Source: an uncultured Gammaproteobacteria bacterium (GTDB lineage: Bacteria > Patescibacteriota > Patescibacteriia > Magasanikbacterales > UBA922). Taken from it: a stretch of DNA of 64,000 nt. Positions within the stretch are counted from its first letter, which is position 1; the number at the start of each line of letters is the position of its first letter. Below the pieces are notes generated by a model that saw only the letters and a list, made by a program, of their open reading frames with translations, made no database searches and had not been told where the DNA came from. Location: positions 92-64,091 of the forward strand of contig CAYMVY010000002.1 in NCBI GenBank assembly GCA_964394405.1. Direction: 5' to 3'. Shown piece after piece: positions 5,261-59,507 of the stretch. The position numbers and the translations under genes are program-made.

Positions 5261-7361
5261 TGTATTCAAAAATCCACATCTTATCATCAATCGATTGCCA
5301 TTTATCGGCAGTCGATTTTCCACCTTCTACAATTTTATCAGAATTTTTCCAATACCAGCTGACAACAAAATAGACTTTGTCTACATGTGTTAGATCAAAA
5401 ACTTTGTCTATTGTTTCTCGTTTTTGCCCCTGATACAACATTTCCTCATACAGAATATAGAGTGGTCCACCAGCAGGTATTGAATAATAGAATTGGGGAC
5501 CTTTTTCTGTATCGATATATCTAGCAAAAGGGTATTCGGTAAGCGAGGTGACTGCGGTCAGAATAGTAGAGAGTACTACATAATTATTTTCTGGATTTTG
5601 ATTGTGAATTGTTTGTACCACTTTTTTGTCGTACTCAGTCACATTGAAACCAGGAAAATACACTTTGCCATTGTATTGCGGGTAGGCAAAGTAGAGAGAG
5701 AACATGAGAAGTATTCCAATTTTTATTGACCCGAGAATATATAGTGTATGTGGTTTGATAGATAATTTATTTTGAATCCATAATAATTTTTTTTCTGAAA
5801 ATTTGTATACCCCATACATACTCAAAGGAATAAGTGTGATAATTGCGCCGACTAGTAATCGGAGCGGATAGTTTCCCTGTTCGTGGAAAGAGACGTCGGG
5901 GAATGTGAATAGCGTACGCAGTAGAAACGCGCCTATAAGAAGTCCGGTGCTGGAAGATAGTAGGATCCATGTAATTTTTGTTTTTCGTAGGTATCGTGCG
6001 CCCACAAGGCCAAAGAAAATTACGATAGGTGTGATCGCGTATTGCCAGATATAGAGTATCTCGAGATACCATGCTGCATCAGCTTTGTACCAGAATGGTC
6101 GGATAACATATTCTTTGAATAATGCGACATGTGTGAAGGGGTTTCGTAGCGAAGGAGCTCCATGTCCATTGAGCCATTGTTGCACTCCAAACATCACGAG
6201 TGGAATACTTATCAGAAGGAGTGTCAGTATACTACAGACAATTACCGTGATTTTTTTGGATTGATATTTTTTTTGTATAAACGCTCCTGCAACAATACAC
6301 ATGAGCGGCGCGCCAAGCAGCGGGTGAGTAGCTAGTGCGTATAGGGATACCATACATATAAGAGAAAAGGGGATAATTGAATGGTAATAGCCAACTATAC
6401 CGAGTATTACCAGTACCATCGCGAGAGTAGTCAGATTGTGCGGTGTAGTGAGATTGAATGGTAAGAAAAAAATAAACGGAATTATGAGCGAAATAACGAG
6501 AGCGGATTGTCGTGTAATATTCCAGATTTTTGGAAATATAGCACGGACTAGGGTGGGGATTGAGATAGATGCAAGGATAGGAACAAGGAAGATGTCGATG
6601 TGTTGTATCGATATTCCACTCAATCGTGAGAGTGTTACTACGAGTCCATATTGTCCGATATAGAATGGTTCTTTTGGGCTGATAAAACCATTTTGCAAAA
6701 TCCACGACTCTGTCGCTCGGTGTATGAATCCGTCAAATCCGAAGCCTAATTTGTATACGATTGCTGCGATACAATAAAAAATAAAAAAATGTATGATTAT
6801 TCCCAGTGTCATGATTTTTCCCGAAGTCTTTTGGGATAATAGGTACACTATTATGCTTGTAGATATCGCAAATAGGATAAAAAACCATGGGGAGAACATT
6901 ATCCAGGGTGAGGGCATCAGCTCTCCGCTTCTTGAAGAAATAATAATGAGCATCAGTATAATTTCCAAAAGCAGGAATAGGTATATAAGCTTATTGGAGC
7001 GTGGGTGGTTTGGTATCAATGCATCTTCTGTAGTTTTCTTTTTTGGTAGCAAAAGAAAGAATAATGGGATAATGAAAGATATAATTGAGGTTAGGGGTGT
7101 TATTTTAAATAGATAGTAGAAGATTACATTGGCGAGGGAAATTGACGATAGGAGTATTGCGAACCCTCCCCACCATTGTATCTCTTTATTACTACTCAAG
7201 CGCTCACCAATTGATTTTCCCGCAATAACGAGATAGGTAATGCATGCAATGCCTGATACTATGGGCGCATCATAGATGTAGGCTTCGATGGTGCATAGTA
7301 TCAGAGAGACGCATAGCAGGACTGTTCGTATGTTGATTTTTGTGCTTATTTTAGCTATCAT
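5229..7361 (-). CDS. Large polytopic membrane protein, putative GT-C-type glycosyltransferase or polysaccharide-related
   Basis: 710 aa with more than 12 predicted TM helices followed by a soluble C-terminal domain. It lies in the glycosylation cluster. The family was not resolved from sequence. Confidence 0.4.
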   Translation of the reverse strand: MIAKISTKINIRTVLLCVSLILCTIEAYIYDAPIVSGIACITYLVIAGKSIGERLSSNKEIQWWGGFAILLSSISLANVIFYYLFKITPLTSIISFIIPLFFLLLPKKKTTEDALIPNHPRSNKLIYLFLLLEIILMLIIISSRSGELMPSPWIMFSPWFFILFAISTSIIVYLLSQKTSGKIMTLGIIIHFFIFYCIAAIVYKLGFGFDGFIHRATESWILQNGFISPKEPFYIGQYGLVVTLSRLSGISIQHIDIFLVPILASISIPTLVRAIFPKIWNITRQSALVISLIIPFIFFLPFNLTTPHNLTTLAMVLVILGIVGYYHSIIPFSLICMVSLYALATHPLLGAPLMCIVAGAFIQKKYQSKKITVIVCSILTLLLISIPLVMFGVQQWLNGHGAPSLRNPFTHVALFKEYVIRPFWYKADAAWYLEILYIWQYAITPIVIFFGLVGARYLRKTKITWILLSSSTGLLIGAFLLRTLFTFPDVSFHEQGNYPLRLLVGAIITLIPLSMYGVYKFSEKKLLWIQNKLSIKPHTLYILGSIKIGILLMFSLYFAYPQYNGKVYFPGFNVTEYDKKVVQTIHNQNPENNYVVLSTILTAVTSLTEYPFARYIDTEKGPQFYYSIPAGGPLYILYEEMLYQGQKRETIDKVFDLTHVDKVYFVVSWYWKNSDKIVEGGKSTADKWQSIDDKMWIFEYTRNDNSPQAL

Positions 7362-7385
7362 ATATGTAACAGTCTATACGATTTT

Positions 7386-8009
7386 ATGGGATTTATCAAA
7401 CGGTTCAAAGAGCGGAATGGGGACTTATTCGTGTATTTGAAAGCAGAAGAAGTTCATCCACATGACTATTTTTTGGCAAAAACGATACTCAAATGGTTTC
7501 CATCGAGTATTACCCCGAATCGGATAAGCATTTTTAGAATTTTAGCAACTCCTGTTGTTTTTTATTTGATACTCAATGGCTTTTATCGAATTGGGATTAT
7601 CACTTTTCTTCTAGTAGCATTTACTGATGCTCTCGACGGTTCTCTCGCTCGGACAGAGAATAAGGTGACCAAGTTTGGGATGCTTATTGATCCTGTGGCT
7701 GATAAATTTCTCGTAGGATCGATTATTCTTATTTTGGTTTTTAGAAATCTCAATCCTTGGCTAGGTATTGCAGTTTTGGGAATTGAGGTGGTATTTATTG
7801 TTTCAGCATTAGTGTCGCGGATAAAATTTAAAACTGTCCGAATGGCAAACAGATGGGGTAAGATTAAGATGTTTCTTCAGGTACTCGCTATGTGTGCGAT
7901 TATGTTTGGGTTGGTACTCGATGTACCTATATTTTTTTCATTCGCAACTGGAATTTTGGGACTTGCAATCGGATTTGCTATTGTGAGTTTGTTTAAACAT
8001 GGACTTTAA
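7386..8009 (+). CDS. CDP-alcohol phosphatidyltransferase family protein
   Basis: Signature D-G-x2-A-R-x8-G-x3-D-x3-D is present as DALDGSLARTENKVTKFGMLIDPVADK. It is a multi-TM protein. Confidence 0.8.
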   Translation: MGFIKRFKERNGDLFVYLKAEEVHPHDYFLAKTILKWFPSSITPNRISIFRILATPVVFYLILNGFYRIGIITFLLVAFTDALDGSLARTENKVTKFGMLIDPVADKFLVGSIILILVFRNLNPWLGIAVLGIEVVFIVSALVSRIKFKTVRMANRWGKIKMFLQVLAMCAIMFGLVLDVPIFFSFATGILGLAIGFAIVSLFKHGL

Positions 8010-8023
8010 GTACGTATTGTAGT

Positions 8024-9718
8024 ATGACTATTTCTGACTTAGGCACTCAACCTCACCCTGCACCCTCCCCTAAAAGGGGAGGGAAATACATATTACCTCT
8101 AGTAGCGTTGTTGTTTTTTGGATTGTATTTTTATCTTCATGGAGGTGAGGCACTCACAGACCTAAGAAACGGCGAAAGTCATAACATTATTTCAAATCAG
8201 CCAGATGAAATGGCTAATTATTTTTTTATCAAGGAATTAGTTGTCAATCATTCGTTTGGGTGGTATGAAGCTCTGAATGAGATTGTATCGAGTCAGGTGC
8301 ATGCGCGCAGCATGACGGTGATTGATGGGCGACTGGAGCCAATTGGATTCCCATTTTTTATTGTATTGGTTTCTGCATTTGCATTTGTACCAACGATGAT
8401 TTTTGGTACAAGTTTTTTCAACATAGTCGCCATCAGCTTAGTACCGCTACTTGCTGTTGCGTCTAATTTTTTGTTGTATGGAATAGTGAAGAGAGTATGG
8501 AATGAACGAATGGCCTTGATCAGTTCGATGTTATTATTTCTACTGCCCTCGTGGTGGTATTGGGCAAGTCGACCATTTCAGCATACGATTCCATTTATAT
8601 TTTTTGTACTCCTCAGTGTGTATGGAATGTTGCGAATACTGGATACCAAAATCACACGTGAGAAATTATGCTATGCCGTGGTGAGCGCTCTTGGAATTTC
8701 AATTGCGCTTGCAATTCGTCCGAATGAATTACTTTGGGTTTTAGGGCTTTATGGGTATGTCGTGTATCTGATGCGAAAGCATATATCCAAGCAACATATT
8801 ATTGCATGGAGTGTGAGTGTTGTGTTTGTTTCTATATTATTTTTTGTGATACAGGATGCTTTCTATGGCAGTCCGCTAGCAAGCGGATATGTAAAACCAA
8901 CCGCAGATGGAGACGCAGGAGGTGTGCTCGGTGGTGGACAAGGAGTATCGTTTCTTCGAGCTTTTTTCTTTCCTTTTGGAATTCATCTCATGAATGCGCT
9001 CACCACTGTGTATCGATATTTTTTTCTTTTGTTTAATTCATGGATATTATGGGCATTTGTATCATTTGTGTTTATTTTGGCACGTGGTGAAAGCTCTATG
9101 AGGAGATATGTCGCAGTGTATTGCGTGTTAAGTGCGTATTTGGTGTTGTGGTATGGATCATGGAGTTTTACTGACAATCTGCTCGGCCTTCCCTCTATCG
9201 GTAGCTCACAAGCACGATATTTTATGCCCGTATATCTTGGTATGATTCCCTTGATTGCATATTTTTGTGACCGTATACTAACTACACTCTCTCGTACGAA
9301 ACAAATTCTTGCCGCCAGTGTTTTGGTTCTTATTTTTTCACTAACTTCACGTAGCGCTGTGTTTGCTTCATTTCCCGAAGGGCTCACTGCAGTCAAACAT
9401 ACGTTGCGTGTATATTCAGAGAGACAAACTGGAATTTACGCTCATGTTCCTGCATATGGATTGGTAGTGACTCGCTATGGAGACAAATATATATTTCCCG
9501 AACGAAAAGTCATGATTCGGACAGAAGAAACTATCTGGGCATACTCAGTAAAACAACTATTGGAAATTGGTATGCCGGTATGGTGGTATGATTTGGAATT
9601 AACATCTGAAGAACAAGAAGAAGTGGACGCGCTTTTGAGTACTAATGGACTGGTACTTGGTGAAGTTAAAGCAACGTGGGACAATCTCCAGCTTAGAGAG
9701 ATAGGGTTGAAAAAATAA
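8024..9718 (+). CDS. Polytopic membrane protein, GT-C fold (GT39/GT83-like, ArnT/PMT family)
   Basis: 564 aa, many TM helices with a large loop, typical of 4-amino-arabinose/mannosyltransferase-like enzymes. The N-terminal codons overlap the GC-rich hairpin repeat at 8053-8084. Confidence 0.55.
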   Translation: MTISDLGTQPHPAPSPKRGGKYILPLVALLFFGLYFYLHGGEALTDLRNGESHNIISNQPDEMANYFFIKELVVNHSFGWYEALNEIVSSQVHARSMTVIDGRLEPIGFPFFIVLVSAFAFVPTMIFGTSFFNIVAISLVPLLAVASNFLLYGIVKRVWNERMALISSMLLFLLPSWWYWASRPFQHTIPFIFFVLLSVYGMLRILDTKITREKLCYAVVSALGISIALAIRPNELLWVLGLYGYVVYLMRKHISKQHIIAWSVSVVFVSILFFVIQDAFYGSPLASGYVKPTADGDAGGVLGGGQGVSFLRAFFFPFGIHLMNALTTVYRYFFLLFNSWILWAFVSFVFILARGESSMRRYVAVYCVLSAYLVLWYGSWSFTDNLLGLPSIGSSQARYFMPVYLGMIPLIAYFCDRILTTLSRTKQILAASVLVLIFSLTSRSAVFASFPEGLTAVKHTLRVYSERQTGIYAHVPAYGLVVTRYGDKYIFPERKVMIRTEETIWAYSVKQLLEIGMPVWWYDLELTSEEQEEVDALLSTNGLVLGEVKATWDNLQLREIGLKK

Positions 9719-10921: not shown

Positions 10922-11929
10922 ATGAAATTACTAGTAACTGGCGGAGCTGGTTTTATCGGATCAAATTTTATTCGATATTGGTTGAGAGAGCATGCAGACG
11001 ATGAAATCGTTAATTTTGATGTATTAACATACGCGGGCAATCTAGAAAATCTAGATGAAGTAAGCGATGATCCCCGATATCATTTTATCAAAGGAGACAT
11101 TACTGATCGGGATGCAGTTTTTGACGCAGTAAAAGATGTTGACGTCGTGGTGCATTTTGCCGCTGAGTCTCATGTGGATCGATCGATTATGGATCCTATG
11201 ATTTTTGTAAAAACAAATGTTATTGGAACGCAGAATTTGCTTGATGCCACAAAAGAATATAAGAAAAGATTTCATCATATCTCGACTGATGAAGTGTTTG
11301 GAGCTTTGAAATTAGGGGAAGCCGCGTTCAATGAGCTCACTCCATATGATCCGAAAAGTCCTTACTCTGCTTCCAAAGCCGCTTCTGATCATCTGGTTCG
11401 TGCATATCGACATACTTTTGGAATTGAGGCGACCATTTCAAATTGTTCGAACAATTACGGCCCGTACATGTTTCCTGAAAAGTTTATTCCATTATGTATT
11501 TCCAATCTGATGGAACATAAAAAAGTACCAGTCTATGGTGATGGACTGTATATACGAGACTGGATACATGTTGATGATCACTCACGTGGAATTGATGTTA
11601 TTTTGAGTAAGGGAAGAATAGGAGAGACTTATTGTCTTGGTGGAAATTCTGAAATGACGAATCTCGATGTAGTAACATTGCTTTTGAAGTACATGCACAA
11701 AGATGAATCGTATATTGAATTTGTAACAGATCGACCAGGACATGATCGACGATATGCGATTGATTTTACCAAAGCAAAGACTGAGCTCGGATGGGGGCCT
11801 GAAATCAAGTTTGAAGAAGGACTCAAAAATATGGTAGACTGGTATCTCTCGAATCAAGACTGGGTGAATCGCTGTAAGAGCGGTGCTTATCGAGAGTACT
11901 ACGCTACACAATATGGTGAACGTTACTAG
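10922..11929 (+). CDS. rfbB: dTDP-glucose 4,6-dehydratase
   Basis: [16 protein letters not shown] Rossmann N-terminus, catalytic YSASKA, SDR extended family. Its length and motifs match RmlB. Confidence 0.9.
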
Positions 11930-11931
11930 TT

Positions 11932-12807
11932 ATGAAAATACTTATTCTCGGTAATGGATATATCGCGAAGCGCTGTGCGAAAGCATGGGCCAACGCGGTA
12001 CATGATCCTACAAAAATATATTCGAAAGAAGATGTTATTGTGTTAATCGAAAAACACCATCCTGATGTAATACTTAACGCTGCGGGCGTGCGTGGAAAAC
12101 CCAATGTTGACTGGTGTGAGACTCATCAGCTCGAAACTATTGTTGGTAATACTAAACTTCCAATTCTCATTGCAGAAGCATGTCAGGAAAAAAATGTGTA
12201 TCTTCTGCATATTGGCTCTGGTTGTATTTTTTATGGCGATTCTCCGCATCCGGATAAGAAATGGCGCGAGAATGATATGGGAAATCCGACAGATGTGACC
12301 TATTCTCGAACGAAATGGGCAGCTGATCTGGTGCTTTCTACTTTGCCAAATACCGGTATTGCTCGAATCCGCATGCCGATTGACTGGATTCCCGCACCTG
12401 ATAATCTGATTAACAAACTCACGTCGTTTTCGAAAGTGATTGATGTTGAAAATAGTGTGACTATTCTTGATGACATGGTTGAGGTTTTTTATAAATTACT
12501 TGAGAAAAAAGCAGAAGGAATTTTTCATGTAACTAATCCTGGAACTTTGAAGCACAGAGAGATTGTTGGTTTATATGAAGAAATAGTTGATTCTGCACAC
12601 AAGAATGAGTGGATTAGTAATGATGATCTGGTAACGCAGGGGCTTGCAACTAAGGGTCGATCGAATAATTTTCTAGCTTCAGAAAATCTCGGAAAGATTG
12701 GTATTGAAATGCGCGAGGTAAAACAAGCAATTCGAGACACTATGGAAAAATATGCTAAGGCAAAAAAAGATGGATTGCATTGGGAAGAATTTCTGACAGT
12801 TGAATAA
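11932..12807 (+). CDS. dTDP-4-dehydrorhamnose reductase-like NAD(P)-dependent epimerase/reductase
   Basis: MKILILGNGYIAK Rossmann-like N-terminus and a YSRTK catalytic motif. It sits immediately downstream of rfbB. Confidence 0.65.
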   Translation: MKILILGNGYIAKRCAKAWANAVHDPTKIYSKEDVIVLIEKHHPDVILNAAGVRGKPNVDWCETHQLETIVGNTKLPILIAEACQEKNVYLLHIGSGCIFYGDSPHPDKKWRENDMGNPTDVTYSRTKWAADLVLSTLPNTGIARIRMPIDWIPAPDNLINKLTSFSKVIDVENSVTILDDMVEVFYKLLEKKAEGIFHVTNPGTLKHREIVGLYEEIVDSAHKNEWISNDDLVTQGLATKGRSNNFLASENLGKIGIEMREVKQAIRDTMEKYAKAKKDGLHWEEFLTVE

Positions 12808-12824
12808 ACAGTATATATCTCATA

Positions 12825-12853
12825 CAAACCTTCTTATCAGAGAGGGTTTTTTG
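12825..12853. terminator. Terminator-like hairpin followed by a T-run after the rmlD-like gene
   Basis: caaaccttcttatcagagagggttttttg. Confidence 0.5.
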
Positions 12854-12970
12854 TTTACCATTGACACCAGACCGGAAAAGTGATATTTTTTTTAATCTTG
12901 TCCATTTCGGATCGGATCCCTATATGCCTAGGGTAATCGGCTATACTGCATTACAGGAGAGGGTGCCACC

Positions 12971-13591
12971 ATGGCACATAATTCTTCGTGGATCGAGTGG
13001 TTCAATACGCAGTGTATCGTTTCGTCGATGATCGTCGTCCCGAAGCCTATTCAGACCGTGCGTGGATGGGTGATGGATCTTCTTCGGGGATGGTTCGGTC
13101 GGACGGATGGTAAGTTCTTCCAGATGGTCGGGTTCGAGATCTCGGTGCCGAAGCCTGGACAGCGGGAGATCCCGAGCTGGGACCAGCCTCTGATCCAGGA
13201 GGTGGGCGAGGGAGCTCTCGGACTTCTCAAGGTCCGGGGAGAGGATCTGTACCTGGTCTCTGCCAAGGCCGAGCCGGGCAACAAGTCCAGAGGTCGGGTC
13301 CTCCTCGCGCCTAGCCTGCAGGCTTCCCGCTCCAACCTCGAGCAGGCGCATGGTGGCACCCTGCCGCCGCGTGCCGAATTCGCTCGAGAGTCGGGCGTCA
13401 AGTGGGTCGACTTCCTCAAGGATGGTGGCCGCTTCTTCGAGAGCACCAACCAGGCCGCGGTGATCGAGGTCGACTACTTCCATCCGAACTCGAACGAGCG
13501 ATGGTTCAGTCGCTACGAGCTCAGGGAGGCTCTCCTTCGCGGTGTGTGCAACGCACACCTTCGAGAGCTGCTCGCGCTCGCGTTCATCTGA
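12971..13591 (+). CDS. Single-domain NDP-hexose 2,3-dehydratase-like protein (Hexose_dehydrat family; Nudix-like fold), high-GC, with SD AGGAGAGG
   Basis: Motifs recalled for the TylX3/EvaA/EryBVI family: GKFFQMVGFEISV, WDQPLIQEVGEGALGLL, LVSAKAEPGN, LAPSLQASRSN..HGG, DGGRFFESTNQAAVIEV. It is 206 aa, half of the usual two-domain enzyme. It shows ~60% GC against a ~40% background. Confidence 0.6.
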   Translation: MAHNSSWIEWFNTQCIVSSMIVVPKPIQTVRGWVMDLLRGWFGRTDGKFFQMVGFEISVPKPGQREIPSWDQPLIQEVGEGALGLLKVRGEDLYLVSAKAEPGNKSRGRVLLAPSLQASRSNLEQAHGGTLPPRAEFARESGVKWVDFLKDGGRFFESTNQAAVIEVDYFHPNSNERWFSRYELREALLRGVCNAHLRELLALAFI

Positions 13592-13603
13592 GATAGAACG
13601 CTC

Positions 13604-13716
13604 GTAGATGTTCTTTTGTGGCCGTATCGGGGGGAGATACATCTCGATACGGCATCTGCAAAAAAGCCTTTCTTCAAGGGCTTTTTTGTTTTCAAGTTTA
13701 TTGATAATAGGCTTGA
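13604..13716. repeat. Left copy of a ~110-bp direct repeat flanking ORF 13773..14324; contains a palindrome and terminator-like hairpin
   Basis: gttcttttgtg...ccgtatcg/cgatacgg palindrome...acggcatctgcaaaaaagcctttcttcaagggcttttttgtttt...tattgataataggcttgac aligns with 14323-14455. Confidence 0.7.
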
Positions 13717-13775
13717 CTTTTTTGTTATATATGCTAATATCCTCTGTCCATCTGACCAGAAGGAGGTTCGAAATG
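13714..13775 (+). promoter_or_regulatory. Canonical sigma70-like promoter (TTGACT N15 TAATAT) and SD AAGGAGG upstream of ORF 13773
   Basis: ttgacttttttgttatatatgctaatat, then ccagaaggaggttcgaaATG. Confidence 0.55.
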
Positions 13776-14324
13776 GACGGGGCAATGTATGAGATACAAC
13801 AGGCAGAAATAGTTCGGGCGCTGAAAATGCTTCCGAACGGGAATGGTCCGCTGCCACACGACATCTTCGTTCAGATCGCACGCGCGTGGTACCTCATCGC
13901 CTTCGAGGCCGTACTCTTGCGCAAGGGGCAGGGTGGCATCGAGGTCTATCTGACTCAACGCGATCTGAGGGACGCGTTCTACCCTGGGGAGTGGCATGCG
14001 CCGGGTTCCATTCTCCTGCCTCGTGAGGAGGATGCTGACGTGGCTCGGCGGCTCGGCAAGAGGGAGTTCAAGAGCCCGATCACGGACAGCTCGTTGGTCG
14101 GGTGCAAGTTCCACCAAGAAGCACGGGGGTGGATGCTCTCGATGATCTTCCTCACCACGGTTCCGGACCTGTCGCACGCTGGTGGCACCTGGTACCCGGT
14201 CGACCGTCTGCCGAAGAATACCGTCTCGTCCCATGTGGACTTCATCATCCCCATGGCAGTTGCGGCCTTCAAGCGGCGGCACGGGTGGCGTGCCTGGGTC
14301 GGGAAGCTGCTCGGTCTGGTGTAG
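13773..14324 (+). CDS. High-GC Nudix-fold-like hypothetical protein (degenerate Nudix box)
   Basis: PGEWHAPGSILLPREEDADVARRLGKREF approximates GX5EX7REUXEEXGU but is off-register. GC content is high. It has a strong SD and its own promoter. Internal ATG at 13773 was chosen over the tracked 13608. Confidence 0.55.
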   Translation: MDGAMYEIQQAEIVRALKMLPNGNGPLPHDIFVQIARAWYLIAFEAVLLRKGQGGIEVYLTQRDLRDAFYPGEWHAPGSILLPREEDADVARRLGKREFKSPITDSSLVGCKFHQEARGWMLSMIFLTTVPDLSHAGGTWYPVDRLPKNTVSSHVDFIIPMAVAAFKRRHGWRAWVGKLLGLV

Positions 14325-14455
14325 TCGTTCTTTTGTGAAAAATTAGGGGTTGCCCTACCGGAGTGAAATAATCTTCGGTACGGCATCTACAAAAAAGCCT
14401 TTATTTTAAGGGCTTTTTTGTTTTACAAAAGCCTATTGGTTTGATAGGATTACCC
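14323..14455. repeat. Right copy of the ~110-bp direct repeat flanking ORF 13773..14324
   Basis: gtcgttcttttgtg...taccgg..cggta palindrome...acggcatctacaaaaaagcctttattttaagggcttttttgtttta...tattggtttgataggattac. Confidence 0.7.
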
Positions 14456-14488: not shown

Positions 14489-15553
14489 ATGTTAGATTCA
14501 CTTACTCAAATTAAAAAAATTGATACTGAAAACATGCTCGGCAGTTTGCAACTACTCCATACACAAGTAGCAGAAGTTGCTCAGAATGCAGAGGGTTTGA
14601 CTATCCCTTCAGCGTATAAAAAAATTGACCGAATAGTAGTTTTTGGCATGGGTGGATCTGCTCTTGGTGGGCATATTATTCAATCCTTATATCGAAAAGA
14701 ATTGAAATACCCACTTGAGATTGTGAATGGGTATGAAGTGCCTGGGTATGTGAATGCAAAAACATTGGTTATTTTATCCAGCTATTCTGGCACGACTGAA
14801 GAAGTATTATTTGTAGCTGAACTTGTGCGGGCACGAAAAGCAAAGATTGTGGTAATCAGTGCGGGCGGTGATTTGGCACAGTTTGCACAGAAACACAAAT
14901 ATCCGGCTTTGATTTTTTCAACTGAGAATAATCCCTGTGGATCTCCACGTATGGGTCTCGGATATTCAATCATTGGACAGTTGATTCTTCTTTCAAAATT
15001 TGGTGTTGTAAAAATTTCATCAAAACAAATTCAAAACATTATTAAGGTGCTTGCCGAGTATGACACACTCTATGGTGTTCTTACTCCAGAAAAAGAAAAT
15101 TTTGCAAAGCAATTGGGGAGAAAGACGATTGATCGAAGTGTATGGTATGTGGGAAGTGAACATCTACTTGGGAGCGCACATACCGCAGCAAATCAGATGA
15201 ATGAGAATGGAAAACGTATGAGCGGATATTTTGCATTACCTGAACTCAACCATCATTTGATGGAAGGTATGATGTATCCGAAGACAAATAAGAATACGTT
15301 ACTTTTTGTCCTGATTGAATCATCCTTGTATTATGCTCGCGTGCAGAAGCGATACGAAGTAACGAGAAAGGTGTTGGAAAAGAATCATATTGCACATACA
15401 TTGTATCGTGTAAAAGAAACTGATGCGTTATTGCAGGCATGCGAATGTTTGGTATTTTTCAGTTATGTGAGTTATTACTCAGGACTCTTGAAAAAGATTG
15501 ATCCGACTGCGATTCCGTTTGTGGATTATTTTAAGCGTGAACTGTCAAAATAG
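14489..15553 (+). CDS. Bifunctional phosphoglucose/phosphomannose isomerase (SIS domain, PGI/PMI family)
   Basis: Tandem SIS-domain signatures: IVVFGMGGSALGG and a second VWYVGSEHLLGSAHTAANQMNENGK. Archaeal-type PGI/PMI architecture. Internal ATG 14489. Confidence 0.7.
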   Translation: MLDSLTQIKKIDTENMLGSLQLLHTQVAEVAQNAEGLTIPSAYKKIDRIVVFGMGGSALGGHIIQSLYRKELKYPLEIVNGYEVPGYVNAKTLVILSSYSGTTEEVLFVAELVRARKAKIVVISAGGDLAQFAQKHKYPALIFSTENNPCGSPRMGLGYSIIGQLILLSKFGVVKISSKQIQNIIKVLAEYDTLYGVLTPEKENFAKQLGRKTIDRSVWYVGSEHLLGSAHTAANQMNENGKRMSGYFALPELNHHLMEGMMYPKTNKNTLLFVLIESSLYYARVQKRYEVTRKVLEKNHIAHTLYRVKETDALLQACECLVFFSYVSYYSGLLKKIDPTAIPFVDYFKRELSK

Positions 15554-15632
15554 AACACGGATGACACGGGTCTAACGGATTTTATTGCATTATCCGTGAT
15601 AACCCGTGTTACCCGTTCAATCCGCGTTCTAT
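15551..15632. repeat. Array of ~9-bp units (AACACGGAT / ACCCGTGTT types) arranged convergently, between the PMI and GT2 genes
   Basis: aacacggat gacacgggt ctaacggatt | atccgtgat aacccgtgtt acccgttca atccgcgttc. A homologous array with opposite arrangement lies at 31869-31958. Confidence 0.65.
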
Positions 15633-15643
15633 TAATTAAGATT

Positions 15644-16501
15644 ATGCGAGTATCTGTTATTACGGTGACCTGGAATAGTAAGGAGTTTATTTTCAACCAA
15701 ATTGAATCTGTTAAGCGTGCGGCACAGAATATTCAGATTGAGCAGATTGTAGTTGATAATGCATCGACTGATGGGACTGTCGAGGTAATACAAGAGAGAT
15801 TTTCTGATGTTATAGTGATTGCAAATAAAGAAAATAAAGGATTCGGTGCAGCGAATAATCAGGGTGTGGAGATTTCGAAAGGGGAGTATGTATTGTTTCT
15901 CAATCCTGACATGAAGTTGGAACCAGGATCACTCGATATATTTGTTGATTGGATGGATACAAATCCAAAGGTTGGTATTGCGAGTCCAAAATTGGTTGAT
16001 GAGCAAGGTGTACTTAATTTGAACACAACTCCCCGTCGATTCCCACGAGTGTGGGAACAGATTGCGTTGATTGTTAAATTACCCCACCTTTTCCCCTCAT
16101 TTCTTGACGGGTATCGAATGAAGGGGTTTGATAGTACTAGAGAACAAGAGGTGGATTCGGTACAGGGTTCGTGCATGCTGGTACGAAGAGAATTGATTGA
16201 AAAATTGGGGTATGCCTTCGATCTTCGATATTTTATCTGGTATGAGGATGTCGATCTTTGTAGGGAGGCATATCGGCTGGGATACGTGGTTATGTATACG
16301 CCGGTCATTAGTGCGGTTGATTATAGTGGGCAGAGTTTTAAAAAACGGACGACTTTGTGGAAACAAAAACAATTTACTCGATCCATGCTTGTTTATTTTC
16401 AAAAATGGGAACCATGGTGGAAGTGGGTATGGATCGCAGTATTTAGACCAGTAGGAATTGGGATCGTCTGGATAGGGGAAAAAGTAAAAAGTAAAAAGTA
16501 A
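15644..16501 (+). CDS. Glycosyltransferase family 2
   Basis: MRVSVITVTWNS...DNASTDGT...NKGFGAANNQG...YVLFLNPD is the GT-A DxD-type fold. Confidence 0.85.
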   Translation: MRVSVITVTWNSKEFIFNQIESVKRAAQNIQIEQIVVDNASTDGTVEVIQERFSDVIVIANKENKGFGAANNQGVEISKGEYVLFLNPDMKLEPGSLDIFVDWMDTNPKVGIASPKLVDEQGVLNLNTTPRRFPRVWEQIALIVKLPHLFPSFLDGYRMKGFDSTREQEVDSVQGSCMLVRRELIEKLGYAFDLRYFIWYEDVDLCREAYRLGYVVMYTPVISAVDYSGQSFKKRTTLWKQKQFTRSMLVYFQKWEPWWKWVWIAVFRPVGIGIVWIGEKVKSKK

Positions 16502-16515
16502 AAAATATTTTTTAT

Positions 16516-17595
16516 ATGCAGAAGTTGGTTATACAGCTGGTGACTTGGAACGGAAAAAAGTATATTCCGTATTTGTTTGATTCACTCAGGAAGCAAACAT
16601 TTAAAGATTTTTATTTGTATATTTTGGACAATGGATCAACTGATGGAACTCCAGAAGCAATCGATAGAGAATTACAAAATTTTCAGTTTGAATATACGTT
16701 TGAAAGGAACGAGAAAAATATGGGATTTGCAGGAGGGCATAATCAGATATATAAAGTCGCAAGTCGCAAGTCGCAAGTCGAAAGTTTCGAATATATACTT
16801 TTGTTGAATCAAGATATATATCTTATACCCGATTGTATTGACAAAATGGTGAATTTTTTAGATGCAAATCAAAATGCATCTGCAGTAAGTCCGAGGCTTA
16901 TGCGGTGGAATTTTGAAGAAGTTCATGATGGTGTAGAGAAAAGTTTTAGTTTTTTTATTGATTCACTGGGACTCCGGGTTTTTCGCAATCGTCGTGTCAT
17001 TGAAAAATACGCAGGAAAAACCTGGGAAGAGAAAAAATCAAGACTGGAATTATCATTTCGCACGCATGACGACGCAATGGAAGTTTTTGGAGTTTCTGGA
17101 GCATTGCCCATGTTTCGACGCAGCTCGCTTGAAGTTGTGAGTTTTAGTGACGGAACTTTTTTTGATGAATGGTATCAATCGTATAAAGAAGATATTGATC
17201 TTGCATATCGATTGAGAATCGCTGGCTTTCAATCATTTGTGTTGCTTAATGCAGTCGCATACCATGATCGATCCGCTGTCGGATTAGAGAGAATGGGTGA
17301 TCGTATTGCAGCTCTGAATAAAAAGAAACAGTCAGTATGGGTCAAATATAATAGTTATAAGAATCATCTCGTGACTATTTATAAAAATGAGTATTGGCAG
17401 AATCTCATCCTTGATTTTTATCTTATTATATGGTATGAGTTGAAGAAGTTTTTGTATTATTTATTATTCGATCGCCCGGTACTCAAGGGTATTCTCGAGA
17501 TTTGGAGAGATAGAAAAAAACTTAAGTATATGAGAAAGGAGATTGTACATATGAGACGGGTTTCATGGAGAGAATTAAGAAAGTGGTGGAAATAG
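16516..17595 (+). CDS. Glycosyltransferase family 2 (rhamnosyltransferase-like) containing an in-frame heptanucleotide tandem repeat
   Basis: LVTWNGKKYIPY..DNGSTDGT..NMGFAGGHNQ...YILLLNQD. The 7-bp repeat lies at 16756-16783. Confidence 0.85.
   Translation: MQKLVIQLVTWNGKKYIPYLFDSLRKQTFKDFYLYILDNGSTDGTPEAIDRELQNFQFEYTFERNEKNMGFAGGHNQIYKVASRKSQVESFEYILLLNQDIYLIPDCIDKMVNFLDANQNASAVSPRLMRWNFEEVHDGVEKSFSFFIDSLGLRVFRNRRVIEKYAGKTWEEKKSRLELSFRTHDDAMEVFGVSGALPMFRRSSLEVVSFSDGTFFDEWYQSYKEDIDLAYRLRIAGFQSFVLLNAVAYHDRSAVGLERMGDRIAALNKKKQSVWVKYNSYKNHLVTIYKNEYWQNLILDFYLIIWYELKKFLYYLLFDRPVLKGILEIWRDRKKLKYMRKEIVHMRRVSWRELRKWWK
16756..16783 (+). repeat. Heptanucleotide tandem repeat (GTCGCAA)x3 + GTCGAAA inside the GT2 coding sequence
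   Basis: aagtcgcaagtcgcaagtcgcaagtcgaaag. 3x7=21 nt keeps the frame. It encodes a short insertion relative to paralogous GT2s in the window. Confidence 0.8.
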
Positions 17596-17598
17596 CGT

Positions 17599-18432
17599 AT
17601 GAAAGATATTGGGGTAGTTATCGTTAATTATAAAATGAAAGAACACATTGAAAAATGTCTTACTTCGTTATTTCCGCAGATTGCACGTTCAACTCTCAAT
17701 ATTAGCGTCGTCGTTGTGGACAATGCGTCAGACGATCACATTAATCTTTTTTTACTTGAACATTTTCCTCAGGTTACTTGTGTAATGCTTCAGAAAAATG
17801 AGGGTTTTGGGAAAGCACAAAACGTTGGTATGAGAAGTATGGAAGCAAAATATTATTTTATTCTTAATCCAGATACCGTATTTACTGAAAATGATCGAAC
17901 CCTCGAGCGTTTGTATCATTTTATGGAATCACGTCCCAAAGTCGGAATGGCTGGTCCTAAATTGCTTAATTCTGATGGATCTCTCCAGCATTCATGTTGG
18001 CGTTTTCCTACGTTTTGGCAACCTTTGTTTAGTCGAACTCGATTGGGTGAAAAGGGGAGGGGTAAAATGATCTCTGATCATTATTTTATGAAAGATTTTG
18101 ATCATGAGTCTACGCGTCCAGTCGATGCTCTGATGGGTTCTGCAATGTTTGTGCGAGGAGAAGCAATTAAGAATGTCGGTAGATTTGATGAACGTTTTTG
18201 GATGTATTTTGAAGATGTGGATTGGTGTATTCGGATGTGGGAAGCAGGTTGGTTTGTGTATTATATCCATGATATTGTGTTAAAACATAGACATGGACGA
18301 GGTTCGGCTAAGGTTCCTGGAATTTTTCGAGCATTTTTCAAAAATAAACTTGCACGAGTACATTTTTTTAGTTGGATAAAGTATTTTTTGAAGTGGCGAG
18401 ATATACATCCGTATTACACCAGTAAATTTTAA
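17599..18432 (+). CDS. Glycosyltransferase family 2
   Basis: VVIVNYKMKEH..VVVVDNASDD..NEGFGKAQNVG..YFILNPD. Confidence 0.85.
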   Translation: MKDIGVVIVNYKMKEHIEKCLTSLFPQIARSTLNISVVVVDNASDDHINLFLLEHFPQVTCVMLQKNEGFGKAQNVGMRSMEAKYYFILNPDTVFTENDRTLERLYHFMESRPKVGMAGPKLLNSDGSLQHSCWRFPTFWQPLFSRTRLGEKGRGKMISDHYFMKDFDHESTRPVDALMGSAMFVRGEAIKNVGRFDERFWMYFEDVDWCIRMWEAGWFVYYIHDIVLKHRHGRGSAKVPGIFRAFFKNKLARVHFFSWIKYFLKWRDIHPYYTSKF

Positions 18433-18440
18433 CCTCTCGT

Positions 18441-19547
18441 ATGGATCAACTTAAACCAAAAATCGGTATTGTGTACCTACTGTATTATCATAATGAGACA
18501 TATATTGATGATATGGTTTCTTCTTTGCGGAAAATTACGTATCCCAAAGATAGGATTGAACTTATTATTGTTGCTAATCCACATGCTGACGAGGGTTCTT
18601 TTGTTCACTATATTGAATCAGCTGTTATGCCCCTTTCGGGCAATGAAATTCCGCATACCACAATACTCCCTCAGGAAAAGAATCTTGGGTTTGGTATAGG
18701 GAATAATGTAGGAACAAAATGGGCAATTGAACATGGGTGCGACTATGTATTTTTTCATAATAACGATGGTTTTTTGGCGACCAATGCATTTGAGCCACTA
18801 GTCGAAGCTTTTGCTTCGGACCCACAGATTGGCGCTGCACAGTCGCTTGTATTGCTCCATCCGGAGACTAATTTGCTCAATAGCGCGGGAAATTCCTTTC
18901 ACTATCTTGGTTTTGGGTTTTGCGATCAATATCGAGTGGATATTAAAAATGTATCATTTCCCCCAATTAAAGATGTAGATTATGCGAGTGGTGCCGCACT
19001 CATGGTTCGTTCTGATTTGATTAAAAAGTATGGTGGATGGGACACGGACTTTTTTATGTATCACGAAGATTTAGAGTGGGCATTTCGGTTGAGGATTCGT
19101 GGGTATAGGACTATTCTCGTCCGTGATTCGATTTTTTATCATAAATATCAATTTGGTAGAAGTATTGAAAAGTTTTTTTGGATGGAAAGAAATCGGCATG
19201 CAATCATGCTTATGTTTTTCAAAATTCCAACCCTCATTTTCCTTCTTCCCATGGGAATTATACTTGAAATTGGGTTGTGGTTTTTTACAATCAAAAATAA
19301 ATATGTCTCAAAACGGGTTGAAGTTTACAAGTATTGGCTTACTTGGAAAAATTGGAAGCTATGGCTCGAGAAGCGAAAAAAAATGCAATCTGAACGGGTT
19401 ATTTCTGATCGCCAACTATTGAAATATTCAGTTCCTGAAATCAAATTTCAAGAAACTGGGATACATAACCCTTTGCTTGTCTACATTGGTAATCCGATTA
19501 TGAAATTGTACTACTGGATTGTAGTTAAGGGTTTGATTTGGTGGTAA
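18441..19547 (+). CDS. Glycosyltransferase family 2 with C-terminal membrane segment
   Basis: IVYLLYYHNE..NLGFGIGNNVG..DYVFFHNND, with a hydrophobic C-terminal region. Confidence 0.8.
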   Translation: MDQLKPKIGIVYLLYYHNETYIDDMVSSLRKITYPKDRIELIIVANPHADEGSFVHYIESAVMPLSGNEIPHTTILPQEKNLGFGIGNNVGTKWAIEHGCDYVFFHNNDGFLATNAFEPLVEAFASDPQIGAAQSLVLLHPETNLLNSAGNSFHYLGFGFCDQYRVDIKNVSFPPIKDVDYASGAALMVRSDLIKKYGGWDTDFFMYHEDLEWAFRLRIRGYRTILVRDSIFYHKYQFGRSIEKFFWMERNRHAIMLMFFKIPTLIFLLPMGIILEIGLWFFTIKNKYVSKRVEVYKYWLTWKNWKLWLEKRKKMQSERVISDRQLLKYSVPEIKFQETGIHNPLLVYIGNPIMKLYYWIVVKGLIWW

Positions 19548-19592
19548 TTCCCGCGTGATACATAGCACATATCAAAATTACAAAAGAAATTT

Positions 19593-20678
19593 ATGCGAAT
19601 AAGAAAAGCGATTTTAACAGGTGGTGGACGTGCAACACGATTGCAACCCATCACTACAACTATCAACAAACATCTTCTTCCACTTGCAAATAAGCCGATG
19701 ATTTTTCATGCAATAGAAAAAGCAGTGGAGGCAGGGGTAGTTGAAATTTTTATTAATACCAATCCTGGGGATACTGAGTTGCAACGAGTGATTGGTGACG
19801 GGGGGCATTGGGGAGTCAATATAACATTTTTTGAACAGACCGGAGGGCCCCAAGGGATTGCGCATGTGGTGAATGAAGCGCGTAATTTTATTGGAGACGA
19901 CCCCTTTATGTTTTACCTTTCAGATAATGTGGTTTTGGGGGATCTCAAGGGATTTTTTGATGAATTTTCTATGGGCAATTATGATTGCATGCTTGCGCTT
20001 TCGGCTGTCTCTGATCCCGAGCGTTTTGGAGTACCTATATTTAATGAAAAGAAAGAACTGATTGATGTAATTGAGAAGCCGAGTAATCCTCAGAACAATT
20101 TTGCAGTGACGGGCATGTACCTCTATGGTCCGCGGGTATTTTTTGATGCGTTTGAACATATTGAAAAAAGTCCCCGCGGAGAATATGAGATTTCGAGTAT
20201 TCATTCATATTTTTTGAAACAGGGAAAGCGTGTCGGGTACAAAGAAATTACCGGGTGGTGGAAAGATACGGGGAAAATGGATGACCTGTTGATTGCCAAT
20301 CGTCTGTTACTTGATAAAACTGACAAGGATTTTTTTGTCTACCCGCGTGAGCTCGTGAAAGATGCAGTGCTTTCTGGCGATGTGCATATTGGCAATGGCA
20401 CGCAAATTGGGAAGAATGTAATTCTCAAAGGGCCAGTGGTTGTTGCTGAAAATGTATTGTTAGAAAATTGCGTGATTGGCCCACATGTGACTATAGGCTC
20501 AGGGTCTGAGATCAGAGACGCACGTATTGATGATTCAATTATCCTCGATAATTCTACGATTATTGCAGACATGCATATTACCCGTAGTATCATTGGTAAA
20601 CATGTCCGATTGACAAAAAAGAGTACTGACGGTGGTCGATCAATGATTATTGGAGACAAAACAAATGTAGAGTTGTAG
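19593..20678 (+). CDS. Sugar-1-phosphate nucleotidyltransferase (RmlA/G1P thymidylyltransferase-like) with C-terminal left-handed beta-helix
   Basis: AILTGGGRATRLQPITTTINKHLLPLANKPMI N-terminal NTP-transferase motif. C-terminal hexapeptide repeats (IGNGTQIGKNV...). Confidence 0.75.
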   Translation: MRIRKAILTGGGRATRLQPITTTINKHLLPLANKPMIFHAIEKAVEAGVVEIFINTNPGDTELQRVIGDGGHWGVNITFFEQTGGPQGIAHVVNEARNFIGDDPFMFYLSDNVVLGDLKGFFDEFSMGNYDCMLALSAVSDPERFGVPIFNEKKELIDVIEKPSNPQNNFAVTGMYLYGPRVFFDAFEHIEKSPRGEYEISSIHSYFLKQGKRVGYKEITGWWKDTGKMDDLLIANRLLLDKTDKDFFVYPRELVKDAVLSGDVHIGNGTQIGKNVILKGPVVVAENVLLENCVIGPHVTIGSGSEIRDARIDDSIILDNSTIIADMHITRSIIGKHVRLTKKSTDGGRSMIIGDKTNVEL

Positions 20679-25191: not shown

Positions 25192-25217
25192 AAAAATTCA
25201 CCGAGAGGTGAATTTTT
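25192..25217. terminator. Rho-independent terminator (ATTCACC-GAGA-GGTGAAT + T-run)
   Basis: aaaaattcaccgagaggtgaattttt. Confidence 0.8.
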
Positions 25218-25311
25218 GGTACTATTGACAAAAATTATAAAAAGGTGTAGTGTGATTTGTTTCGTGCTGGAAAAACACTATTCGTACTTTGTGGTACAAA
25301 GGATTGGATAC

Positions 25312-25821
25312 ATGAAGCGGCCTATTCCTAGTTTTCCTCCTGTGAATGGTGAGATGCTAATGCCCTGTGAACCGGATGAACTCCCAGATGATCTGCAGGG
25401 TGCATTACCGGATCCCTGTCAGGAGACTGCTGCACATACGTTCCTTCGTAACTCCCGTAACAAGGGTTGTTGGGTTGGTATGAGTGGGTCTGATTTTTTG
25501 GACCATCTTAACAGCTTTAGCAACCAGCGTATCTGGAAGTTCGTGTCCAAGAAGAAGTGGTATCAGTGGCTGTGCCGATCCAAGATCCATCCCCTGACTG
25601 TTCGCTGGGAACATCGGGGGGAAGGTCTGAATTATTCGGGTACTGACACCGATACGCTGTACGAGACGGACTTCTTTAGAGTCGGAATACACCGACTCAT
25701 CGAGTCACAAATGGTATTGCTCGTGCCAGGCAAGAAACCGGAAGCAACGATGATATTCCCGACGCCGCTTCTGGTCTCGACCCTCATGAAGCACCAAGCT
25801 CGCCAGCAAGTTCGCTCGTGA
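25312..25821 (+). CDS. Hypothetical protein in a high-GC islet with SD (AAGGA N8 ATG)
   Basis: GC clearly elevated. Followed by a GC-rich 15-bp-stem hairpin (25832-25867) lacking a U-tract. No family recognised. Confidence 0.5.
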   Translation: MKRPIPSFPPVNGEMLMPCEPDELPDDLQGALPDPCQETAAHTFLRNSRNKGCWVGMSGSDFLDHLNSFSNQRIWKFVSKKKWYQWLCRSKIHPLTVRWEHRGEGLNYSGTDTDTLYETDFFRVGIHRLIESQMVLLVPGKKPEATMIFPTPLLVSTLMKHQARQQVRS

Positions 25822-33297: not shown

Positions 33298-33402
33298 AAG
33301 CTCAAAACGTAAAACTCAAAGCTTAAAACTGGAACTAAAAACTCAAAATTTTAAGCTTTGAGTTATAGTTTTAAGTTTTGATATTTAAGCTTTGAGTTTT
33401 TT
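33298..33402. repeat. Palindromic AAACTCAAA/TTTGAGTT dispersed element, copy 2 (overlaps the 3' end of the NUDIX gene)
   Basis: ctcaaaacgtaaaactcaaagcttaaaactggaactaaaaactcaaaattttaagctttgagttatagttttaagttttgatatttaagctttgagtttt. Confidence 0.7.
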
Positions 33403-33802
33403 TTAAATACTCCTCAACAACAGCTCTTACATTTGGAGCACAATCTTCCGGTAGATCATTAATATCAAACCAGTTCCATTCAACAATATTTTCACCTGGT
33501 TTTATTTCTCCAATTCGCTTTGCAAGATAGTGGATAAGAATCACTAGTTTTTCTGGATGGTCTGGGCGATGTACGAGCATTGGTTTTAATGGTTGTATGA
33601 TTTCAACTTTAATTCCCATTTCTTCCATTACTTCACGTTTACATGCTTCTTCAAGTGAAATATCAAAAGATTCTACTTCTCCGCCAGGAAAAAGCCAGGT
33701 GGTAATTCGACCATTTTCTTTCTTCTCTTTATTAAGCAAAACTTTGCCATTTTCAATAATGACTGGTCCCGAGGCAATAATTGTTTGATCTGGTAGATAC
33801 AT
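33371..33802 (-). CDS. NUDIX hydrolase
   Basis: Nudix box GGEVESFDISLEEACKREVMEEMG. Confidence 0.8.
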   Translation of the reverse strand: MYLPDQTIIASGPVIIENGKVLLNKEKKENGRITTWLFPGGEVESFDISLEEACKREVMEEMGIKVEIIQPLKPMLVHRPDHPEKLVILIHYLAKRIGEIKPGENIVEWNWFDINDLPEDCAPNVRAVVEEYLKKTQSLNIKT

Positions 33803-34260: not shown

Positions 34261-34359
34261 TACCAAATAAAGTATTGACTTTATAATAATGTTCATATAT
34301 CCTATTGCGGTGCTTAGCTCAACCTCGGTCGAGTTGTGCCGTCAACCAGAGGAAACATC

Positions 34360-59384: not shown

Positions 59385-59507
59385 TGACAAACTTATGTCT
59401 TTTTGGTAGATTCATCTATCAACTATTGTCTACTGCGCTGGCTGTATAGTATGTACATCTGGCGCAGCCGGCAATCCCGCCATCAGAGGCTGCCAAGGAG
59501 AATCGAA

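Follow-up and report, generated by a model that had tools for sequence, protein, structure and literature searches.

A variable slot of stand-alone GC-rich cassettes in the dTDP-sugar cluster of a Magasanikbacterium, with a half-size relative of sugar 2,3-dehydratases

The stretch of DNA analysed here (the window) comprises 64,000 nucleotides (nt) of contig CAYMVY010000002.1 (assembly GCA_964394405.1) of a Magasanikbacterium, a member of the Candidate Phyla Radiation (CPR), and contains a conserved gene cluster for deoxythymidine diphosphate (dTDP) sugars and surface glycan. The placement in the CPR (Patescibacteria) is given by SecA, which has 89% identity to a protein of Candidatus Magasanikbacteria. 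Between the genes of an RmlD-like reductase and of a phosphoglucose/phosphomannose isomerase (PGI/PMI) in this cluster lie two open reading frames (ORFs) rich in guanine and cytosine (GC): ORF1, a single-domain protein of family PF03559, and ORF2, an atypical protein of Nudix fold. The account proposed, which we consider somewhat more probable than improbable, is that of a slot of stand-alone cassettes, occupied in the window by a single-domain relative of sugar 2,3-dehydratases and by an ORF2 unrelated to it, with a GC excess that persists over time. Within a known family, ORF1 stands as a new and uncharacterised variant; what was unexpected is how the cassettes are built and that their GC excess persists.

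The high GC belongs to the two coding sequences (CDSs). ORF1 and ORF2 have 60.9% and 61.1% GC, compared with 40.6% in the remaining window, where 600-nt windows outside the segment have a standard deviation of 3.1 points and a maximum of 52.8%. GC at third codon positions (GC3) is 0.76 in ORF1 and 0.77 in ORF2, clearly distinct from the 0.353 ± 0.063 of 48 other genes, and first and second positions (GC1, GC2) as well as the Arg/Lys ratio are shifted too. The 5' flank (40.5% GC), the 181-nt spacer (40.3%) and the 3' flank (37.1%) are host-like. The sequence-only reading of this DNA had described a block of about 1.6 kb at some 60% GC; both of its ORFs and all the motifs it quoted are present, and its contrast with the flanking genes holds, yet the block resolves into two ORFs at 61% with spacers at 37-40%. 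The entire segment has 54.9% GC and is not a continuous island.

An assembly chimera or artefact was ruled out, since a separate Logan assembly of run SRR12404947 contains the arrangement at 100% identity over 2.6 kb and syntenic equivalents are present in assemblies of other samples. A long antisense ORF (12941-13864, minus strand) was taken as a spurious frame, as is usual in GC-rich DNA, because the Pfam match, the homologues and the GC3 pattern are all on the plus strand. Selection on mRNA structure was rejected as the cause of the high GC by a shuffle test, in which the folding of the CDSs was no better than that of synonymous-codon shuffles (z = -0.34 for ORF1 and -0.21 for ORF2); whole transcripts yielded z = -5.1, but this value is confounded by mixed composition and terminal hairpins.

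Each ORF forms its own transcription unit, composed of a sigma-70 promoter, a short leader, the GC-rich ORF, a hairpin and a terminator. Both leaders start with the motif TGTCCAYYT, and each stop codon is followed by a direct repeat of about 100 nt that contains the motif GTTCTTT and a hairpin of 12 bp, together with a terminator module, CAAAAAAGCCTTT-loop-AAGGGCTTTTTTGTTTT, that is invariant. The hairpin covaries, with compensatory changes at 8 of its 12 pairs across six cassettes. The module has two copies in the window, both after the ORF1 and ORF2 cassettes, and in related genomes it was found only after slot cassettes. A phage origin was rejected, given that IMG/VR contains neither relatives of the cassettes nor the terminator module. 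Rfam gave nothing significant in the cassette spacers and untranslated regions (UTRs). The reading of the 3' repeat as an integron attC site was rejected by eye: it is a hairpin followed by an A-tract/T-tract terminator, without RYYYAAC...GTTRRRY core sites. A Pfam scan of about 1.5-25 kb of the window, which covers the cluster and the genes next to it, showed no integrase family, and integron cassettes are promoterless, whereas those of ORF1 and ORF2 each have their own promoter.

At least four more GC-rich islets occur on the plus strand of the window, at 1012-1416, 25216-25821, 34360-34566 and 59403-59840, with 49-57% GC and GC3 of 0.54-0.61. They share the same build (an upstream terminator, a TTGAC-type promoter, a ribosome-binding site (RBS), an orphan ORF, a GC-rich hairpin and an AT-rich terminator), hence the cassette phenomenon is genome-wide and extends beyond the sugar cluster. 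Their small orphan ORFs have no Pfam match. A further GC-rich stretch of about 400 nt (33834-34290, 52-60% GC) adjoins a canonical Nudix gene (33371-33802, minus strand); it contains only an implausible ORF of 150 amino acids (aa), has no match in Pfam or Rfam, and might represent either a decayed cassette or a non-coding RNA.

The slot contains different Nudix-fold cassettes in four lineages of related genomes; the loci of relatives are designated here by L numbers. The window has the PF03559 gene and ORF2; L001 has an ORF2 homologue and a 262-aa Nudix protein; L002 has an ORF2 homologue and a 207-aa Nudix protein; L003, L004 and L009, which are one locus (L004/L009: CAYWFD010000033.1), have an operonic ORF2 homologue, a PF03559 gene and a 216-aa Nudix protein; and L169 and L170 have PF03559 alone. 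The Nudix box is canonical in the proteins of 207 and 216 aa, and the divergent 262-aa protein shares its core. Flanking proteins are 73-92% identical between the slot genomes, compared with 47-57% for cassette proteins, the exception being ORF2, which is 83% identical between the window and L001. RmlB is 90%, 81% and 78% identical to its counterparts in L001, L002 and L003, and the RmlD-like protein 62% identical to that of L001 and 81-84% to those of L002 and L003. This mosaic of identities across the cluster suggests recombination breakpoints at the slot. At non-synonymous sites, slot cassettes evolve about twice as fast as the flanks. The gap between RmlD and PGI also contains phosphohydrolases of the HAD, HD and Nudix families in other classes of CPR (L008, L011, L014 and L015). 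We propose that this is a variable slot of a conserved surface-glycan cluster, filled by stand-alone cassettes, in which recombination at the repeated flanking modules would change cassette content between close relatives.

Two observations concern the relatives themselves. In L001, the RmlD-like gene (7037-7888) is 62% identical to the window copy though the genes on either side of the slot are 90-92% identical, and this sequence pattern indicates a probable allelic replacement at the slot border. L004/L009 and L015 (CAZXML010000005.1) are labelled 'uncultured Gammaproteobacteria bacterium', yet carry the CPR-type cluster, with RmlB and PGI identities to the window of 73-84% in L003 (= L004/L009) and 47-54% in L015; judging from these sequences, the labels are probably wrong.

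ORF1 matches PF03559 with 95.2 bits (cut-off 25, E = 4.6e-27) over profile positions 4-201 of 203. Pfam, a PDB sequence search and a fold search agree in placing it, as a single domain, in the nucleoside diphosphate (NDP)-hexose 2,3-dehydratase family, to which it had been assigned from its motifs; NCBIfam has no match for ORF1 or ORF2. The sole PDB sequence match of the ORF1 family is EvaA (4J7G), on which the family profile (alignment A1) scores 96.9 bits at the N domain and 88.0 at the C domain, and the motifs KxEPGN, QA(S/T)RSN and AHGG are common to the ORF1 clade and the EvaA N domain but decayed in the C domain. The AlphaFold2 (AF2) model of ORF1 has a mean predicted local distance difference test score (pLDDT) of 90.7 and a Nudix-like fold. 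Its top Foldseek matches are EvaA 4J7H and 4J7G (E = 3e-11 to 2.5e-10, query TM-score (TMq) 0.69-0.76), and the next structural neighbours are the Nudix enzymes YffH and ADP-ribose diphosphatase, at 10-17% identity. By its sequence, ORF1 thus appears to resemble the catalytic N-terminal half of EvaA.

EvaA requires residues E139 and E190 of pocket A in its N domain, and its pocket B is left over from a duplication (PMC8987622). E139 aligns with E101 of ORF1 (in KAEPGN) and E190 with D151 (in DGGRF); of 22 clade members, at least 90% conserve E101 and all have D151. Besides the E139 position, ORF1 shares with EvaA/TylX3/OleV-type dehydratases (4J7G, 4J7H) the Pfam family, the Nudix-like fold, the N-domain motifs and a gene position downstream of a 4,6-dehydratase. 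Those enzymes, however, are tandem pairs of about 470 aa (about 450-490 aa for the two-domain architecture of the family) from antibiotic clusters, whereas ORF1 is one domain of about 205 aa, with Asp at the E190 position, in a CPR surface-glycan cluster without a 3-ketoreductase partner. The GDP-mannose hydrolase YffH of E. coli and ADP-ribose diphosphatase are similar to ORF1 in size, differ from it in that ORF1 lacks a Nudix box, and are homodimers. Since these are its next structural neighbours, a homodimer that recreates the two-lobed architecture of EvaA is what we naturally infer for ORF1 by analogy, and the YffH and ADP-ribose diphosphatase dimers would be the likely template for a two-subunit site in single-domain PF03559 proteins.

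The best-supported reading of its function is that ORF1 acts on the product of RmlB, dTDP-4-keto-6-deoxyglucose. A dTDP-sugar setting had been proposed from the sequence, and long-form RmlA and RmlB do exceed the NCBIfam equivalog cut-offs; RmlB was also said to lie immediately upstream of ORF1, but it ends about 1 kb upstream and the RmlD-like gene intervenes. ORF1, presumably dimeric like the homodimeric Nudix sugar hydrolases, would take the dTDP-4-keto-6-deoxyglucose supplied by RmlA and RmlB and either start a 2-deoxy branch or drain this intermediate. In the former case, a 2-deoxy sugar would enter the glycan built by the family 2 glycosyltransferases (GT2) of the cluster, with the RmlD-like reductase as candidate partner. 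The synthesis of 2,6-dideoxy sugars by the cluster is plausible.

Several findings count against this account of ORF1. It has Asp instead of Glu at the E190 position. The Pfam scan showed no RmlC, 3-ketoreductase or aminotransferase in the cluster and its immediate neighbours, hence a complete 2,6-dideoxy pathway is invisible; among the cluster proteins there is no member of the Gfo/Idh/MocA, aldo-keto reductase or DegT families, and the sole candidate is the RmlD-like protein, a short-chain dehydrogenase/reductase (SDR). PF03559 genes also occur outside any visible sugar cluster, in L007, L010, L012, L017 and L173. In the literature, we found no study of single-domain PF03559 proteins and no enzymatic data on any of them.

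The gaps in the pathway also fit a non-biosynthetic role, which we regard as unlikely, although serious enough to be kept in view. ORF1 would then be a pool-control or 'housecleaning' enzyme that drains dTDP-4-keto-6-deoxyglucose: the 3,4-diketo product is reportedly unstable, according to work on TylX3 and Gra-orf27, and without a 3-ketoreductase it would fall apart. Apart from the absence of 3-ketoreductase, aminotransferase and RmlC from the cluster, this role agrees with the HAD, HD and Nudix phosphohydrolases that occupy the same gap in L008, L011, L014 and L015, with the canonical Nudix box of the other slot cassettes in L002 and L003, the core of which recurs in the divergent cassette of L001, and with PF03559 being dispensable, as it is absent in L001 and, as far as the contig extends, in L002. 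However, the adjacent RmlD-like reductase could reduce the product, and the retention of the gene beside GT2 genes in many CPR classes suggests the product is used.

As an observation on ORF1 in its own right, nucleotides 12960-12973, at its RBS and start codon, are perfectly complementary over 14 nt to 13349-13362, which encode AHGG. None of 300 codon shuffles reaches the same, and L169 keeps 9 nt of the complementarity in the same place while other relatives do not have it. This may reflect long-range translational control or coincidence.

To map the distribution of the family, 241 million metagenome records were searched along with the genomes of 185,579 species and 5.8 billion proteins. 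CPR, marine Thaumarchaeota and Acidimicrobiia commonly have single-domain PF03559 proteins, and such forms account for about a quarter of the best 150 library matches. Doudna-, Uhr-, Magasanik-, Sacchari-, Peri- and Peregrinibacteria all have members of the clade of about 205 aa to which ORF1 belongs. Its gene lies beside RmlB and/or GT2 genes in about half of the loci, those whose retrieved contig includes the sugar cluster: it adjoins them in 9 of 15 further CPR loci searched, has the same context in L169, L170 and L172, and in at least 10 loci of CPR type is near an RmlB gene. Among relatives whose context is known, the nearest (38-57% identity) are nearly all in lower-GC, CPR-type contexts. 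In a neighbour-joining (NJ) tree, the clade stands apart from the two-domain enzymes, in both their halves, and from the single-domain forms of about 250 aa of Actinomycetota, Thaumarchaeota and Gammaproteobacteria; the GC of these other forms is native. Three sister pairs are common to the PF03559 and RmlB trees (window/L003, L014/L015 and L008/L089); both trees are neighbour-joining trees without support values, which weakens the phylogenetic argument. The single-domain PF03559 protein may be a pre-duplication, homodimeric form of the sugar 2,3-dehydratases, and would point to 2-deoxy or otherwise modified sugars on the surface of CPR cells, which is the interface between epibiont and host.

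Three further observations were made on this family. The form of about 250 aa is very frequent in contigs of marine Nitrosopumilus-type Thaumarchaeota (L098-L168 and L025-L028), at a native GC of 0.28-0.39, and is another uncharacterised half-size branch. In L023, a metagenome-assembled genome (MAG) of Magasanikbacteria, a 3.2-kb block (5944-9102) of 55-60% GC has four ORFs, two of them PF03559-like, among neighbouring genes of 33-40% GC, and a further PF03559-like match, the third and a distant one, is at 1011-1643. In L172, a 206-aa PF03559 gene (236-856) is followed by a GT2 gene on a 2.3-kb contig of 60% GC overall; with a GC3 of 0.76-0.96 in the neighbour, this is the sole GC-rich context found for the clade of about 205 aa.

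The high GC looks like a long-kept property of the cassettes across CPR, not the mark of recent import. Among some 22 CPR-type lineages for which enough flanking DNA was available, about 18 have a gene whose GC exceeds that of its contig by 9-22 points (0.576 against 0.376 in L014, 0.618 against 0.405 in L015, and 0.600 against 0.381 in L169), the exceptions being L011/L092, L018, L024 and L172. Where the amino acid is conserved, 62-63% of four-fold sites differ between sister lineages, as many as in the flanks; these sites are near saturation, yet their GC (GC4) is 0.63-0.81 in the cassettes and 0.3-0.5 in the flanks. Decay from an ancestral composition was modelled with a two-state model calibrated on the flanks, assuming the cassettes co-diverged under the AT-biased process of the flanks. 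The ancestral GC4 required is 1.13-1.27 for ORF2 of the window and L001, 1.3-2.0 for PF03559 of L014 and L015, and 2.9 for PF03559 of the window and L003. Given that flank-calibrated decay demands an impossible ancestral GC4 (above 100%), simple recent horizontal gene transfer (HGT) is unlikely. The ORF2 homologue of L003, which is fused into the RmlD operon, has high GC1 and GC2 but a GC3 of 0.29; hence, amelioration occurs once a gene leaves the cassette state.

Two explanations of the high GC remain: a GC-favouring regime, through biased gene conversion or selection, or repeated replacement from a GC-rich pool. Under the latter, the donor must carry the same AT-rich modules, because those always frame the GC-rich ORFs, and the pool would therefore lie inside the same bacterial group rather than in a uniformly GC-rich foreign genome. 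The high GC would accordingly be upheld either by GC-favouring fixation or selection, or by repeated exchange within the cassette pool, and we favour intrinsic maintenance with moderate confidence. A more specific version is advanced tentatively, as a possibility short of an even chance: the CPR cassette pool may have been held about 20 GC points above the genome over the long term by GC-favouring fixation, most plausibly GC-biased gene conversion resulting from recombination between the invariant modules. If this is true, the pool would show biased gene conversion, or selection for GC, acting in bacteria at the scale of genes and with unusual sharpness, and compositional 'islands' in reduced genomes would be unreliable as evidence of recent HGT.

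Three observations pull away from long-term persistence. Polarised ORF2 substitutions comprise 26 GC>AT changes against 13 in the other direction, with L002 as outgroup, from few sites and by a method biased towards a GC ancestor. For the pair of the window and L001, decay from about 95% GC4 fits if the strong-to-weak (S-to-W) rate of the cassette is half that of the flanks. L172, in its contig of 60% GC, demonstrates that GC-rich carriers exist.

These observations bear on the competing explanation that each lineage independently and recently acquired un-ameliorated DNA from a high-GC donor, such as an actinobacterium, which we judge unlikely. It would account for a GC3 of 0.76-0.77 in a genome of 0.35 and for the amino-acid usage of high-GC type, for the amelioration-like state of the L003 ORF2 homologue and of PF03559 in L008, both with host-level GC3 and high GC1 and GC2, and for the lean of polarised changes towards GC>AT; moreover, native high-GC single-domain PF03559 proteins exist in Actinomycetota, and L172 has its 60% GC context. 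On the other hand, the nearest relatives (38-57%) are almost all in lower-GC CPR-type contexts, the ORF2 family is limited to four matches, located at the slot where context is known, and the three sister pairs agree with the RmlB tree. The AT-rich modules conserved between genomes and cassettes would make the donor another Magasanikbacterium, and no viral relatives were found. Horizontal acquisition had been deduced from GC content, a deduction at odds with a CPR-wide, mostly GC-elevated clade, with three pairs matching the RmlB tree and with the failure of flank-calibrated decay. As for placement against actinobacterial forms, the clade of about 205 aa is separate in the NJ tree, and those forms are only about 35% identical, at about 260 aa.

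That the slot is instead a hot spot of immunity or counter-immunity, whose Nudix-fold cassettes degrade nucleotide signals or modify nucleotides in conflict with phages or with host cells, is improbable. Its cassettes are variable, with about twice the non-synonymous rate of the flanks, Nudix proteins are numerous, and a HIT protein resembling ThsC is nearby; however, PADLOC gave no significant match for ORF1 or ORF2, the slot is tightly embedded in a dTDP-sugar/glycosyltransferase cluster across CPR, and PF03559 is a family of sugar-nucleotide enzymes.

ORF2 was confirmed as a Nudix-fold protein with a degenerate box by the alignment of the box and by structural neighbours. ORF2 itself reaches only E = 0.075 against the Pfam NUDIX profile, and its L002 homologue passes the cut-off (22.4 vs 21.1 bits). 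The box consensus of the family, G-x6-E-x7-R-L-G-x-R-E-F, departs from the canonical GX5EX7REUXEEXGU in that RLGxREF replaces REUxEE; neither the Glu of RE nor the first Glu of EE is retained, so two of the three core glutamates are gone. The model of ORF2 has no extra folded domain, only flanking helices, and it matches NrtR/AraR regulators in their non-catalytic Nudix domain only, at 15-17% identity. The family has just four matches among the 5.8 billion proteins, all of them at the same slot where context is known. Compared with its L001 homologue, ORF2 presents a ratio of non-synonymous to synonymous substitution rates (dN/dS) of 0.23, and is thus a constrained protein-coding gene. Most likely, it would be a non-canonical Nudix protein that binds nucleotides or sugars.

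The idea that ORF2 is the split-off second domain of ORF1, the two forming a naturally split 2,3-dehydratase heterodimer, is very improbable: the genes are adjacent, both folds are of Nudix type and the combined 389 aa come near the lower end of two-domain enzymes, but there is no profile relation (hhalign probability of 0.4% for ORF2 against the PF03559 clade), EvaA is missing from the structural neighbours of ORF2, each gene forms a transcription unit by itself, and each occurs without the other in relatives (L001 and, over the length of its contig, L002 have an ORF2 homologue but no PF03559 gene, and L169/L170 and the other CPR loci searched have PF03559 but no ORF2), the combination being found only in the window and the L003 lineage.

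Comparison with known systems sets the slot apart in composition. O-antigen and capsule loci are likewise hot spots with conserved borders, mosaic identities and varying gene content, and their variable genes usually fall below the genome in GC; the slot genes are instead 20 GC points higher, each with the repeated promoter/terminator module. Phage morons, which are independent promoter-gene-terminator units of deviant composition (PMC3594210), resemble the slot cassettes as stand-alone units inserted between genes with a GC unlike that of their neighbours. The slot cassettes, however, are chromosomal, in a conserved sugar cluster with no phage genes nearby, and their deviant GC appears long-lived, not a sign of recent arrival. 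The locus offers a clean example, in nature, of a conserved glycan cluster in a minimal genome with a variable slot for cassettes. A GC excess of 20 points that persists through synonymous turnover cannot be read as recent HGT, and would offer a tractable system for weighing GC-biased gene conversion against selection in bacteria (for background, see PMC4450053).

The features of the cluster are presented in Table 1. Its gene order is HIT, Nudix, RmlB, RmlD-like, slot, PGI/PMI, four GT2 and long RmlA. The start of RmlB was set at the ATG that agrees with 334-aa homologues. The RmlD-like protein scores 53.6 bits against an rmlD equivalog cut-off of 224, and is not an orthodox RmlD. For the isomerase, the top NCBIfam models are named PGI/PMI, with scores under their cut-offs.

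Table 1. Features of the dTDP-sugar cluster and its cassette slot (window coordinates).
Feature	Coordinates	Strand	Evidence or remark
RmlB, dTDP-glucose 4,6-dehydratase	10922..11929	+	TIGR01181 equivalog 479.9 bits, cut-off 365; Pfam
RmlD-like SDR reductase, left slot border	11932..12807	+	PF04321 57 bits
Intrinsic terminator of RmlD-like gene	12826..12849	+	terminator scan
Sigma-70-type promoter, cassette 1 (TTGACA-17-TATTTT, TG-extended)	12861..12889	+	10/12 consensus matches
ORF1 5' UTR with TGTCCAYYT motif, RBS GGAGAG	12890..12970	+	
Small palindrome containing ORF1 start codon	12963-12977		
ORF1, 206 aa, single-domain PF03559	12971..13591	+	60.9% GC
Cassette 1 3' hairpin, 12-bp consensus stem	13621..13653	+	direct repeat with 14349-14423
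Cassette-specific terminator module CAAAAAAGCCTTT-loop-AAGGGCTTTTTTGTTTT	13659..13693	+	invariant, six cassettes/five genomes
Sigma-70-type promoter, cassette 2 (TTGACT-16-TAATAT, TG-extended)	13713..13740	+	
ORF2, 183 aa, Nudix fold, degenerate Nudix box	13773..14324	+	61.1% GC
Cassette 2 3' hairpin	14352..14384	+	
Second copy of terminator module	14390..14425	+	
PGI/PMI gene promoter	14422-14450	+	
Bifunctional PGI/PMI-type SIS isomerase, right slot border	14489..15553	+	Pfam bact-PGI_C + SIS
Four GT2 glycosyltransferases and long-form RmlA	15596..20678	+	
Long-form RmlA	19593-20678	+	TIGR01208 rmlA_long 326.7 bits, cut-off 320

Elsewhere in the 64-kb window no tRNA gene was found, and an adenosylcobalamin (AdoCbl)-II riboswitch lies at 63525-63591 on the minus strand, with 44.6 bits, above the Rfam gathering score.

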